The notes under the pieces are model-generated. The model saw only the letters and a list, made by a program, of their open reading frames with translations. It ran no database searches and had not been told where the DNA came from. This document shows, one piece after another, positions 2,932 through 54,467 of a stretch of 64,000 nucleotides of DNA. Where the stretch lies: positions 46,822-110,821 of the forward strand of contig JBHPFV010000002.1 in NCBI GenBank assembly GCA_042571705.1. Direction: 5' to 3'. Position numbers and translations under genes: made by a program. This stretch comes from Candidatus Omnitrophota bacterium. GTDB lineage: Bacteria; Omnitrophota; Gorgyraeia; JAFGHF01. Each line of letters starts with the position of its first letter. Within the stretch, counting starts at the first letter, position 1.

Positions 2932-3225
2932 CTCTTCTCTTCTTCTCTATCTATACAGGGCTCGGGGTCCTGTCTCGGGTGCGCTTTCGGTGCTCGTTCC
3001 CCTAAAGGGGTGGGCCTTGCCCTCCTTTAGACAAGGGCCCTAGATTACAGTCCCTGGCTGCCGAAGGCAGACAAGAAACTTATACTATCTGTGTTTTCTC
3101 TCACTGCGCGCCGAAAGCTAGCACCCTCGCCACCCCTCGCCAACATCGATGATTGCACATGCGAGCTGTTTTTGCATTTAAATGCTGGTGGGCGGCTAAG
3201 CGGCCATCAGCAATTTATTGGCAAT

Positions 3226-3410
3226 AGAGTTGTGAGCATTTACAGTGAGCAAATGGCGGAACTGACCGAGAACTCACCCAATTATATTCTTACGAGGGAA
3301 TTCCGCCAAATTTGCGAACTGCCTCTCCTTAAATTCACAGTTTAGCAGGCCACGAGCGAAGCGAGTGGTAAATGCCACAACTCGGCAAAAAATTGCAGGC
3401 CGCGAGACGC
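3226..3410. repeat. Copy 1 of a ~185-nt structured intergenic element with terminal inverted repeats (second copy at 52976-53160)
   Basis: A 47-nt block (3226-3272) and a 43-nt block (3281-3323) are identical to the 52976.. copy, with about 85-90% identity overall. Internal stem GCAAATGGCGGAA / TTCCGCCAAATTTGC encloses a variable loop. Second hairpin CGAGTGG-taaatg-CCACaaCTCG. Flanking inverted repeats cagcaatttattggc / gccaaaaaattgcag (read on + strand). Confidence 0.8.
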
Positions 3411-50079: not shown

Positions 50080-51161
50080 TCTTTTCCTTTTCGCTTTAAG
50101 AGGTTTTGGCACACTAAATCTCCGACTTCGGAAGTGGAATATCCCATCTTGCCGGCAGAGAGGCTCTGTAATTTATTTCCGGTAACATACATTACCGCAT
50201 TTTCGACCATTTGCCCGGCTTCCTTTTCACCCAACTGCCTGAGCATCATCTCCAAGGCGCAAATTGAGGCCAGCGGATTAATGACATTTTTTCCAGTATA
50301 TTTAGGCGCTGAGCCGCCAATCGGCTCAAACATCGAGACGCCCCCGGGGTTAATGTTACCTCCGGCAGCGATACCCATGCCGCCCTGAATCATCGCGCCC
50401 AAATCAGTAATAATATCACCAAACATATTGTCGGTCACAATTACATCAAACCACTCGGGATTTTTAATCATCCACATGCAAGTGGCATCCACATGCGCAT
50501 AATCGGTTTGGATATCCGGATAGTCTTTGGCCACTTGATTAAACAAGCGCTCCCAAAGGCCCCAGGCATAAGTCAAGACATTAGTCTTGCCGCAAAGAGT
50601 AAGCTTCTTTCTTTTATTGCGCTGGCGGGTAAACTCAAAGGCAAACCGTAGGCAGCGCTCAATCCCTAAGCGGGTATTGCGTGAGACTTGAACCGCCACT
50701 TCATCATCGGCCCCTTGATTAATAAATTCTCCCTCACCCACATAGAGACCCTCGTTATTCTCCCGGACCACCACAAAATCAATATCCTCAGGCAACTTGT
50801 CCTTTAAAGGCGTCCAAACTCCGGGGTAGAGTTTGACCGGACGTAAATTAATGTACTGATTCAGGCCAAATCTAATCTTTAGCAGTAACCCTTGCTCTAA
50901 AATCCCCGGTTTGACCCGCGGGTCGCCGACCGCGCCAAGAAAGATGGCATCAAATTGCTTAAGACCCTCAAGTTGGGCGTCGGTTAGCACTTCTTTAGTT
51001 TTCAGATAGCGTTCGGCACCGTAGTCAAATTCCTGGGCCTGGTATTTAAAGCCGCAGATTTTACTCACTGCCTCTAAGACCTTTAAGCCTTCGCGGACTA
51101 CCTCTGAACCAGTACCGTCTCCGGCGATTACGGCTATTTTATATTTTTCTTTCTTATCCAC
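50076..51161 (-). CDS. leuB: 3-isopropylmalate dehydrogenase
   Basis: [14 protein letters not shown]-terminus. IMDH/IDH signature NMFGDIITD. Confidence 0.9.
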
Positions 51162-51625
51162 TGCATCAATCCTCCTGCTCTAATCAACTCCTGCATAAAC
51201 TTAGGAAATTTTTGGGCGTAATAGACCTTGGCTTGCGCCAGATCGGAAATTTCACCTTTATCTAAATCTATTTCCAGCAAGCTATTATTTTTAATCTGTT
51301 GAGCCTGCTGACAGTCCAAAATCGGCAGGCCGATATTGATCGCGTTGCGATAAAAAATCCGGGCAAAACTCACGGCCACTACACAAGAAAAACCGGCGGC
51401 CTTAATCGAAACCGGCGCATGTTCCCGAGACGAACCACAGCCAAAGTTCTCACCGGCTACCATCAGATCGCCCTTTTTCACGGCCTTAGCCAACCCCGGC
51501 TGAATGCCTTCCATACAATGCCGGCCTAATTCCTTGGGATCGCTAATGTTTAAGAACCTGGCCGGAATAATCTCATCCGTATTAACATCATTACCGAACT
51601 TATGTACTCGACCTTTTAACTTCAT
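51134..51625 (-). CDS. leuD: 3-isopropylmalate dehydratase small subunit
   Basis: [13 protein letters not shown] ... [14 protein letters not shown]. Confidence 0.9.
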
Positions 51626-51631
51626 TAGGGT

Positions 51632-51670
51632 ACACTTCTCCGATTGATTTTAGGACACTTCTCCGATTGA
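51632..51670. promoter_or_regulatory. Two copies of a 16-nt direct repeat (acacttctccgattga), 23 nt apart, immediately upstream of the leuD start
   Basis: Exact 16/16 identity. On the gene strand each copy contains GGAGAAG (SD-like). It lies at the boundary between leuD and the low-GC insert. Confidence 0.4.
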
Positions 51671-51690
51671 GTTAAGAACCGGTCTTAGTT

Positions 51691-52119
51691 TTATGTGACA
51701 CGGTGGTTTGAGTTGCTGGATGTTTTTAATTTCTTAATGAGATTTATATAAATCGTCTTCAAATAATAGACGCCTACCAGAAAAGCTCCAACAAATAGCA
51801 AAGATTGAAATGAATTCAATCCTCTTGCATATGTATATTTAATCCAACCTCTATGTGCTTGTGCATGTGCCTCGAATAACGATTTAGCTACTTTTGATTC
51901 TCGCTCCGTCTTTGGGAAGAACTCACTGTGCATAGAAGTAAATTGCTCAGTAAAAGAATCATGGATATCTTTTACTTTTATGGCGGTCAAAAATATTGAT
52001 GTTATAGCTCCTATGATTAAAAGCATACCAATCCATAAGACAATCTTATCGCTTTTCTTGATTTCAGAATTTAGGATACGTTTTTCGATTTTGGTCAATT
52101 CCATATTCTTTGCTCTCAT
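51691..52119 (-). CDS. Small membrane protein (2 predicted TM helices), unknown family, within the low-GC insert
   Basis: Hydrophobic segments IVLWIGMLLIIGAITSIFLTAI and LLFVGAFLVGVYYL. AT-rich, Lys/Asn-rich codon usage unlike the neighbouring genes. Confidence 0.5.
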   Translation of the reverse strand: MRAKNMELTKIEKRILNSEIKKSDKIVLWIGMLLIIGAITSIFLTAIKVKDIHDSFTEQFTSMHSEFFPKTERESKVAKSLFEAHAQAHRGWIKYTYARGLNSFQSLLFVGAFLVGVYYLKTIYINLIKKLKTSSNSNHRVT

Positions 52120-52257
52120 ACCTTATTATTACATCCTACGTCGAAATCAGCAGCCTCACCCGTGGTTAACGCGTTGTAAGGGTCCGCTGGATTGATTTGT
52201 TAGACAAATATTTTAATACCATATTCTTTTAATATCCTCATTATAATTTGAAATATC

Positions 52258-52866
52258 TTACGGAAGCAATGAGGAAACATTTGCATCTTGATTAAGAATT
52301 GATGAATAACGTATGCAGAGTTTATCTAATCCTTCAACGGCTCGATGGATTTCATGCCATTTTATTTTTTTCTTCCCTTTTAATTTTCTTTGACTATGAG
52401 CAAAAATGGTATCAACCGTAGTGCCAATGCGTTTAGTATTTTTTTCAAACTTATTCAAGTCTGCAATGACATTTTTTTTAGGTAAGGCGTCGTTGCCGGC
52501 GCCAACGAGTGAATTAAAATCTTCCTGACCAAATCTTTTTATATGTTTAGGATACCGCCTGACATAGCTTCTTCTTGTAATAATTTGCGGGTTTTTGGCA
52601 ATAGATTGCATAAGGTGAAATAATGAGTAAGTCCTATTATCTTTATCAATAAGTCGGCGAATTCCCATTGCAACATGAGTTGCATAGTTCCTTTTTACCC
52701 AGTTAATAACAAGAGTGTTGTTTATGTATTTCTGGGAAGTATTTATGATTTCCATTGATTGACGAAAAATATAATTATCAATGAGGACACCGGTAACCAT
52801 TTTATTTATTTTTTTCATCCGGTATCGCCATTTAGCTCTGGTTTTGGAATAGTCTTTTTTATGCAT
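52258..52866 (-). CDS. Hypothetical 202-aa basic protein with a HEPN-like R-N-x3-H motif (candidate Abi/toxin-type RNase), within the low-GC insert
   Basis: ..WVKRNYATHVAMGIRRL.. matches the R[NHD]x3-5H HEPN signature. About 35% GC versus about 48% in the flanking genes. No other recognisable domain. Confidence 0.4.
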   Translation of the reverse strand: MHKKDYSKTRAKWRYRMKKINKMVTGVLIDNYIFRQSMEIINTSQKYINNTLVINWVKRNYATHVAMGIRRLIDKDNRTYSLFHLMQSIAKNPQIITRRSYVRRYPKHIKRFGQEDFNSLVGAGNDALPKKNVIADLNKFEKNTKRIGTTVDTIFAHSQRKLKGKKKIKWHEIHRAVEGLDKLCIRYSSILNQDANVSSLLP

Positions 52867-52975
52867 TTATATTTTGTCTAACAATTAATATAGGAAATTC
52901 GTATTTTGTGGTATTACTCTCGTTTGACCTTGCGAGGTGTCTTTGCAGAGCGAGCATTAGAATTTTTTCGGCAAA

Positions 52976-53160
52976 AGAGTTGTGAGCATTTACAGTGAGC
53001 AAATGGCGGAACTGACCGAGAAACACCAGATTATATTCTTACGAGGGAATTCCGCCAAATTTGCGAACTGCCCCTCCTTAAAGTAACCTTTAGCCGGCCA
53101 CGAGCGCAGCGAGTGGTAAATGCCACAACTCGGCGAAAAAATTCAGCGAGCGAGCAAAGA
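52976..53160. repeat. Copy 2 of the ~185-nt structured element (see 3226-3410)
   Basis: Same conserved blocks and hairpins as copy 1. Bounded by the inverted repeats gaattttttcg (52960-52970) and cgaaaaaattc (53135-53145). It lies 24 nt after the leuC stop and about 110 nt before the HEPN-like ORF. Confidence 0.8.
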
Positions 53161-53183
53161 TACCGAAGCAAGGTCAAAGAACC

Positions 53184-54467
53184 TTAAATTTCCTCAGGAT
53201 GGGCGATTCGTCCTTTGATCGCGCTGGCCGCGGCCACCGCCGGATTCGACAAATAGACCTTGCTGCTTAAGGCCCCCATCCGGCCCCGGAAATTACGATT
53301 AGTAGTGGCAATGGCCACCTCGCCTTCGCCCAGGATACCCATATGTCCACCCAGGCAAGGCCCGCAAGTCGGCGGGCACACTGTTGCCCCAGCCTTAACA
53401 AAAATGTCGATCAAGCGTAGCTTTAAGGCCAGGCGAAAGATTTGTTGCGTACCCGGAAAAACAATTAATCTGACCCGGGAATTAGCTTTACGCTTCCTCA
53501 AAATACTTGCCGCCGACATCAAGTCGGAGATCCGCCCATTAGTGCAAGAACCAATCACCGCTTGGTCAATGTTTATCTTCTTTAACCTGCCTACCGGCTG
53601 GACATTACTTGGTAAATGCGGGCAAGCCACCTGAGGCTCTAATTTGCTCACATCATATTCCCAAATTGCCGAGTATCTAGCCCCGGGGTCACTGCTTAGG
53701 CCTCTAAACTTCCTCATGTTTGCTTTGGTCAAGCTGGCCCCGGCCACCTGCCTAAGATAGGCGTGCGTTTTTTGATCGGGGGACACGATCCCTGATTTTG
53801 CGCCGGCTTCAATAGCCATATTACACATCGTAAATCTGCCATCCATAGATAAGCGCGTTATCGCCGGACCGGTAAATTCCATTGCTTTGTATAGCGCGCC
53901 GGATACGCCAATATCCGCTATAGTCCGCAGAATTAAATCCTTACCTCCAACCCAGTTACCGGCTGTTCCATGATAAACAAACTTTATTGATTCCGGCACA
54001 CGCAACCAAACCTCTCCAGTAATCCAGGCCGCGGCTAAATCAGTTGAGCCTATCCCGCTGGCAAATGCCCCCAGGGCCCCATAAGTACAGGTATGCGAAT
54101 CAGCCCCGATCACCAACTGGCCGGGTAAAATCAAACCTTTCTCCGGAAGTAAGACGTGCTCAATACCGCCAAGACCTAGCCGGTAAAAATGCTTAATCTT
54201 GTAATCACGCGCAAAATCCTCAACTAATTTATTTTGATTTGCGCTTTGGACATCCTTGCTAGGTACGAAGTGGTCACAGACTAAGGCCGCCTTAGCGCGG
54301 TTAAAAACCGCAGCGGCTCGGCTGGCCTTGAATTTGGCGATAGCCAACGGTGAAGTAATATCGTTGCCCAAGGCTAAATCGACCCGGGCATTAATAAACT
54401 CACCCGGGGCAATGTCCTTCTTATTTGTGTGCGCCAATAAGATTTTTTCGGTTATTGTTGAGCTCAT
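53184..54467 (-). CDS. leuC: 3-isopropylmalate dehydratase large subunit
   Basis: Aconitase-family Cys ligands (..GSCTNGR.., CGPCLG). 427 aa, archaeal/short type. Confidence 0.9.
   Translation of the reverse strand: MSSTITEKILLAHTNKKDIAPGEFINARVDLALGNDITSPLAIAKFKASRAAAVFNRAKAALVCDHFVPSKDVQSANQNKLVEDFARDYKIKHFYRLGLGGIEHVLLPEKGLILPGQLVIGADSHTCTYGALGAFASGIGSTDLAAAWITGEVWLRVPESIKFVYHGTAGNWVGGKDLILRTIADIGVSGALYKAMEFTGPAITRLSMDGRFTMCNMAIEAGAKSGIVSPDQKTHAYLRQVAGASLTKANMRKFRGLSSDPGARYSAIWEYDVSKLEPQVACPHLPSNVQPVGRLKKINIDQAVIGSCTNGRISDLMSAASILRKRKANSRVRLIVFPGTQQIFRLALKLRLIDIFVKAGATVCPPTCGPCLGGHMGILGEGEVAIATTNRNFRGRMGALSSKVYLSNPAVAAASAIKGRIAHPEEI

Follow-up and report, generated by a model that had tools for sequence, protein, structure and literature searches.

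The window analysed here is a 64,000-nt stretch of a Candidatus Omnitrophota genome (assembly GCA_042571705.1, contig JBHPFV010000002.1, positions 46,822 to 110,821). Between leuD and leuC it carries an open reading frame (ORF) that belongs to the AbiU2 branch of the HEPN superfamily. A first-pass annotation of the sequence had placed a 202-aa ORF at 52258-52866, and the ORF listing agrees, with 202 codons running from ATG to TAA on the minus strand. The protein was also right to be called strongly basic, with an isoelectric point (pI) above 10, as the computed value is 10.42 (25 K, 17 R, 10 D, 5 E). Taken as a whole, the locus is probably best explained as a solitary AbiU2-branch gene that arrived by horizontal transfer, whose key residue is H157 and whose copy in the window looks weakened. 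The features of the gene are the following:

52258..52866, minus strand: AbiU2-type HEPN-family ORF of 202 aa, with the ATG at 52866 and the TAA at 52258-52260
52396..52413, minus strand: D152-T153-I154-F155-A156-H157, the true conserved motif of the family, from an alignment of 111 members
52645..52659, minus strand: R70-R71-L-I-D74, another patch of conserved polar residues, at the C-terminal end of helix 2
52675..52692, minus strand: R59-N60-Y61-A62-T63-H64, the motif put forward by the first-pass annotation, in which only Y61 is conserved in the family (106/111)
52213..52260, minus strand: premature TAA (52258-52260), followed in frame by 14 codons, DISNYNEDIKRIWY, and then the second stop (52213-52215)

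The NCBI annotation of the same gene (P0001) is a 186-aa hypothetical protein starting at M17, a start that removes the family-conserved R10-x-K12-W13-R14 (within 52819-52866 of the window). As K12-W13-R14 precedes M17, the start that gives 202 aa is to be preferred.

The protein matches the Pfam model PF18734 (HEPN_AbiU2) with 38.3 bits (E=1.3e-9, residues 54-197 aligned to positions 42-178 of the 193 in the profile), which exceeds the curated gathering threshold of 26.8 bits. The first-pass annotation had seen no recognisable domain besides a short HEPN-type motif and thus overlooked this curated one; its HEPN call named the correct superfamily by motif-based reasoning that proved wrong. An exhaustive HMMER search retrieved 883 representative clusters at E<=1e-3, of which 182 also pass E<=1e-10, mostly proteins of 215-235 aa that align with nearly the whole query. 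Conservation was counted in an alignment of 111 family members, the window protein included, and 108 of them match PF18734 themselves. The family consensus reaches 67 bits against this model (E=1.7e-18) and matches no other model of the HEPN clan, and a 76%-identical homologue, P0002, scores 31 bits.

The type member of PF18734 is reportedly AbiUii (AbiU2) of Lactococcus lactis, said to have been described by Dai et al. in 2001. The window protein resembles the family in being all-alpha and of similar size (~200-230 aa), and its homologues sit in restriction-modification (R-M) and Abi operons, as published for the family. It differs in belonging to a distant environmental clade, in lacking an AbiU1, R-M or Sel1 neighbour and in being truncated at its C-terminus, and its clade shows [N/D]-[K/R]-x-x-A-H, not the canonical Rx4-6H. 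Profile-profile analysis established AbiU2 as a HEPN family (Anantharaman et al. 2013), with R-M operons and a Sel1-repeat partner as the published contexts (PMC3710099).

Other searches returned little. With the family profile, a word-indexed protein search found 5 proteins only, and a related-locus search with a 4-sequence alignment found one genome locus, four metagenome loci and no viral locus. The window protein had no tblastn match in the plasmid and phage collections, and no close relative was found in the plasmid, phage and viral-contig collections; the family consensus matched by tblastn a single plasmid gene, from Streptomyces, whose annotation is hypothetical protein. Searches of PADLOC, NCBIfam and PHROGs yielded nothing meaningful for the window protein or for its 142-aa neighbour. 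The sole PDB sequence match (E=3e-5) is a designed coiled coil, not a relative.

The only invariant column of the alignment is H157 (111/111). Columns conserved at 90% or more are W13, Y61, R70, S81, F117, D136, A156, Y187 and a C-terminal Trp, and around H157 the family motif reads [N/D]152-[K/R]153-x-x-A156-H157-x-[D/E]-[R/K]. A second conserved patch, R70-R71-x-x-D74...S81, has R70 in 108 of the 111 proteins, R71 in 95 with Lys in another 11, and D74 in 96. The AlphaFold2 model built with the family alignment is all-alpha and confident, with a predicted local distance difference test score (pLDDT) of 94.8 and a predicted template modelling score of 0.89. Its helices span residues 3-43, 51-72, 82-91, 98-102, 107-121, 130-156 and 170-192.

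HEPN domains are four-helix up-down bundles, in many cases carrying inserts between helices 2 and 3, and their Rx4-6H motif lies where helix 3 ends and the loop to helix 4 starts (PMC3710099). Read in these terms, the model has helix 1 at 3-43, helix 2 at 51-72, an insert at 82-121, helix 3 at 130-156 and helix 4 at 170-192. H157 directly follows helix 130-156, the canonical position of the HEPN His, and corresponds to the HEPN catalytic His. A second model, of the full-length relative P0145, is equally confident (pLDDT 95.5) and has the same helix order, with helix 3 ending at the invariant His. Structure prediction, which the first-pass annotation had proposed as a check of the HEPN fold, did not cleanly bear it out: helix topology and the position of the invariant His fit HEPN, but Foldseek gave no match in the PDB or among viral structures. 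Because of this, the HEPN fold rests on Pfam, the literature and helix topology.

The window protein shares with canonical HEPN RNases (HepT/MNT, RnlA/LsoA, Csm6/Csx1, Cas13, PrrC/RloC and the KEN domains of Ire1 and RNase L) four predicted core helices, with an insert predicted to separate helix 2 from helix 3, and an invariant His where helix 3 ends. Unlike them, it has no Arg four to six residues before this His, and it has neither an MNT or other antitoxin neighbour nor a Foldseek match to a solved HEPN structure. Membership of the HepT-MNT group in particular finds no support at the locus, as no MNT nucleotidyltransferase gene flanks the ORF.

The copy in the window ends early. After P202 the frame reads TAA as codon 203, then D-I-S-N-Y-N-E-D-I-K-R-I-W-Y and a second stop. 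These post-stop codons align with the C-terminal tail of the family, including the Trp present in 103 of the 111 relatives (compare P0021, ...EEYDEDIKAIWG), and P0002 has GAG (Glu) at the codon matching the premature TAA. In the P0145 model this tail is ordered (pLDDT ~96) and contains a short helix. The ancestral ORF was ~217 aa long, and the post-stop codons are a remnant of the conserved tail. TAA is the commonest stop codon in the window and ends argC, rpsI, rplM, truA, asd and leuC, so recoding or read-through was rejected. The same premature stop is found in the sister assembly GCA_042569555.1, which differs at 25 of 11,105 positions; given this and the usage of TAA in the window, the stop is real, and neither a sequencing error nor recoding.

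The genomic contexts of the relatives are varied. On the groundwater metagenome contigs that carry P0002, the gene shares 4 bp with the end of a type II/IIG methyltransferase-like gene (PADLOC MTase_II, E=3.9e-9), and downstream of it come an AAA_14/DUF4143 ATPase and a PIN toxin pair. P0145 lies directly after an AbiGi-family gene and is followed by a protein with four transmembrane (TM) segments, and another relative sits after a molybdopterin-binding gene. Most homologues are translationally coupled to the gene upstream. Such variety is typical of mobile defence or toxin genes, and the methyltransferase and AbiGi contexts fit the published association of AbiU2 with R-M operons (PMC3710099). 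Two relatives adjoin tyrosine recombinase (Phage_integrase) genes (L014 4883-5935 and L015 586-1338), a hint at site-specific mobilisation of such cassettes. One of these two is oriented divergently, as in integrons.

AbiGi/AbiGii is a two-gene abortive-infection system, predicted to be of the toxin-antitoxin type. P0145 occupies the AbiGii position after its AbiGi-family gene, whereas the window has no AbiGi gene and its protein matches no AbiGii model. A sequence similarity between AbiUii and AbiGii was noted in a 2026 review (PMC13064643). Small membrane or membrane-anchored proteins are often encoded downstream of the relatives (L009 2158-2799, L010 2693-3049, L012 1090-1485, L015 3169-3588). 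They are mutually unrelated: examples are a two-TM ORFan in the window and, at other loci, a protein with four TM segments, one anchored by its N-terminus and one that combines a DnaJ domain with a hydrophobic tail. The sample is too small to define a system.

In the window itself, the gene lies on an insertion with the following features:

51626..53183, no strand assigned: insertion of ~1.56 kb between leuD and leuC, made up of a low-GC cassette and a palindromic repeat, delimited by GC content and gene order
51691..52119, minus strand: 142-aa ORFan downstream of the AbiU2-type gene, with two predicted TM segments (hydropathy, residues 24-42 and 107-125)
52197..52208, plus strand: arm 1 of the 12-nt inverted repeat TTGTTAGACAAA, 4 nt after the second stop
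52873..52884, minus strand: arm 2 of this repeat, 6 nt before the ATG
52920..53180, no strand assigned: long imperfect palindrome of ~260 bp, resembling a miniature inverted-repeat transposable element (MITE), between leuC and the AbiU2-type gene

The AbiU2-type gene and the 142-aa ORF are flanked by leuD (51134-51625) and leuC (53184-54467), within a neighbourhood of housekeeping genes that lies entirely on the minus strand and comprises argC, rpsI, rplM, truA, asd, leuB and leuD, then leuC, glgC, an MscS-type channel and a GH57 enzyme. The first-pass annotation had spoken of a foreign-looking cassette, and rightly so: GC content is 33-36% at ~51600-53000 and 44-50% in the flanks. Nucleotide homology to the P0002 loci (82.7% over 630 nt) is limited to the gene itself (window 52231-52860). 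Because of this GC dip and of homology confined to the gene, the insertion is foreign and the gene was horizontally acquired.

The 142-aa ORFan matches no family, and its sole database match is itself in the sister assembly, which leaves a role as conserved partner of the AbiU2-type protein unsupported. Two ORFs upstream, of 55 and 48 aa, were considered as antitoxins and rejected, as they lie inside the repeated palindromic element and have no family matches; no remnant of a P0002-type upstream methyltransferase was found in the window. The palindrome occurs at least twice in the window, its second copy lying at 3199-3406, between rsmA and a PolX/PHP gene, with 88% identity over 208 nt. The copies fold into hairpins with z-scores of -6.4 and -9.3, and both keep a sigma-70-like TTGGCG-17-TATAAT on the minus strand, aimed at the downstream gene. 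The site at 53058-53030 (minus strand) has 10/12 matches to a promoter, in a region where the number of such sites is not above shuffled background. Rfam gave no match at gathering score on the insertion, palindrome included.

The two arms of TTGTTAGACAAA bracket the extended ORF and are the only perfect copies in the 64 kb, with 0.42 matches expected by chance at one mismatch. Each arm is itself nearly palindromic (TTGT-N3-ACAA), and the repeat is not present at the homologous P0002 loci. It may mark the boundary of a cassette, form a pair of operators or have arisen by chance. Where the insertion ends on its downstream side, a 23-nt stretch is duplicated in tandem (78% identity, window 51621-51666); the duplication covers the ribosome-binding site and start codon of leuD and may be a scar of the insertion event. 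Comparison with GCA_042569555.1 over 11.1 kb placed 11 of the 25 differences within ~320 bp of the 3' part of leuC (53211-53526), beside the insertion, which suggests a local recombination tract; the insertion is 100% identical between the two. The sister contig, JBHPHE010000051.1, ends within the 142-aa ORF, which may reflect assembly difficulty or strain heterogeneity at this edge.

By analogy with characterised HEPN enzymes, the AbiU2-type protein would be a small, all-alpha, probably dimeric and metal-independent endoribonuclease-type effector of an abortive infection or toxin system. H157, at the end of the third core helix, would be its key residue, probably assisted in most relatives by a Lys or Arg at position -4 and by the Arg70-Arg71-Asp74 patch, and H157-dependent cleavage of RNA would arrest translation upon phage infection or loss of regulation. 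RNase chemistry, a defence role and any current activity of the window protein are thus what we infer from these better known enzymes. An experimental parallel is HNPBCG_15845, a single-gene integron cassette of Vibrio mimicus MB461 with an AbiU2 domain, predicted to be dimeric and reported to confer resistance to T4 and T7 (bioRxiv 10.64898/2026.03.17.712381). We liken it to the window protein by the shared AbiU2 domain, not by sequence comparison: it too is an AbiU2-domain protein on a single-gene mobile cassette, and its resistance presumably arises by abortive infection. However, the window cassette does not lie in an integron, has a 12-nt inverted repeat and a MITE-like element but no attC sites, and encodes a truncated protein.

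Where the active site lies was the main point on which the first-pass annotation departed from this reading. It took Arg-Asn-x3-His as the HEPN signature, which would make R59-N60-x3-H64 the catalytic Rx4-6H motif. The segment is indeed there (K58-RNYATH-VAMGIRRL72, with R59, N60 and H64) and fits R[NHD]x3-5H. Among the 12 closest relatives, moreover, 9 retain R59 and H64, so that within this clade the segment is under constraint, and in a canonical bundle the N-terminal half of helix 2 should come close to where helix 3 ends. As evidence, though, the motif is weak, because residue shuffles of the same protein produce such motifs by chance: R[NHD]x3-5H occurs in 24% of them and Rx4-6H in 84%, and the window protein itself contains three Rx4-6H matches. 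Across the family, the complete R-[NHD]-x3-H at 59-64 is found in one protein of 111, the window protein itself. Position 59 is Arg in 41/111 relatives, position 60 is Asn in 55/111, and position 64 is His in 15/111 and otherwise mostly Ser, Ala or Thr; R59 and H64 occur together in 11/111, essentially the closest clade. In the predicted model the motif sits in the middle of helix 51-72, HEPN helix 2, whereas the canonical site is the end of helix 3. A compensation by R59/H64 for the lost K/R153 was considered and rejected, since the pair shows no association with the state of the H157-side motif among the 111 relatives. A catalytic role of R59-N60-x3-H64 is therefore highly improbable: it is not the active site, and its match to the superfamily of the protein is a coincidence. 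With the motif in helix 2 and the true conserved His at 157, the unease that the first-pass annotation had voiced over a motif in the N-terminal third is explained.

With the active site placed at H157, several results still weigh against the favoured explanation. The canonical Arg is absent, with an Arg at -5 to -7 from H157 in only 3/111 relatives, and the window protein lacks any Lys or Arg at 152-154, carrying T153 where 91/111 relatives have K or R. Foldseek searches of both confident models against the PDB and BFVD found no HEPN or other significant match, only generic helical bundles; sequence searches of the PDB with the protein and the family profile found no relative with a solved structure; and PADLOC leaves the protein unrecognised. 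The window contains neither a partner nor an antitoxin gene for it, and the TAA removes the tail pattern P-x4-[DN]-[WY]-x3-[FL]-x2-[PA]-W of the family. In the AbiU2 literature, no RNase activity is demonstrated for any member of the family (PMC3710099, PMC13064643, bioRxiv 10.64898/2026.03.17.712381). The HEPN assignment of Lactococcus AbiUii is computational, and in Lactococcus AbiUi alone gives modest resistance, which addition of AbiUii lowers (PMC13064643). These Lactococcus data, the missing Arg, the generic Foldseek bundles and the translational coupling to an upstream gene in most homologues would also suit regulatory or adaptor bundles that modulate a nuclease, a methyltransferase or AbiGi, in which case the solitary window copy would have no autonomous activity. 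We consider this improbable, as an invariant His at the solvent end, with its conserved polar surround, is typical of an enzyme, and a single AbiU2-domain cassette is reportedly protective alone against T4 and T7. The upstream partners are also mutually unrelated, which argues against one specific protein-protein partnership.

A less remote alternative, though still an unlikely one, is that of a gene in decay and without function: an AbiU2-type cassette of foreign origin that was inactivated in the leu operon and persists only because the event is recent. The lost tail is conserved and ordered, with its near-invariant Trp, T153 replaces the basic residue, the only neighbour on the insertion is an ORFan, and the tail is still readable after the stop, which implies a young stop. 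On the other hand, the remainder of the copy is intact, with the other near-invariant residues all kept and no frameshifts, and 12 of the 111 relatives, the window protein among them, likewise have no basic residue at 152-154. The ratio of nonsynonymous to synonymous substitution rates (dN/dS) against P0002 is 0.24, with a dS of 0.54, so the gene was under purifying selection for most of its history. The two assemblies, identical in sequence here, reveal no further decay, although they are uninformative on recent selection. Because the tail is truncated and the basic residue at 153 is missing, the copy looks weakened and may be attenuated or inactive, and a horizontally acquired AbiU2-branch protein centred on H157 remains the reading that we favour.

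The window gene, borne on a short foreign insertion, adds one somewhat damaged member to a family already known. Its importance goes little beyond annotation: a hypothetical Omnitrophota protein can be named as AbiU2-type HEPN-family, with its start corrected and its premature stop flagged. For method, it is a caution that a short Rx4-6H-type match hit the right superfamily by accident, with the true conserved residue 93 residues away. Of modest wider interest are a large clade (the 883 representative clusters) without the Arg of the canonical HEPN motif, a type of protein without a solved structure or demonstrated activity, and the presence of a defence-type cassette within the leuC-leuD operon beside a MITE-like repeat. 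A bolder reading, to which we give only a slim chance, is that a non-canonical HEPN site, formed by H157, a basic residue at -4 and the Arg-Arg-Asp patch, would characterise a clade that travels as autonomous single-gene cassettes and inserts even into housekeeping operons, with the inverted repeat and the MITE-like element marking an undescribed route of mobilisation.
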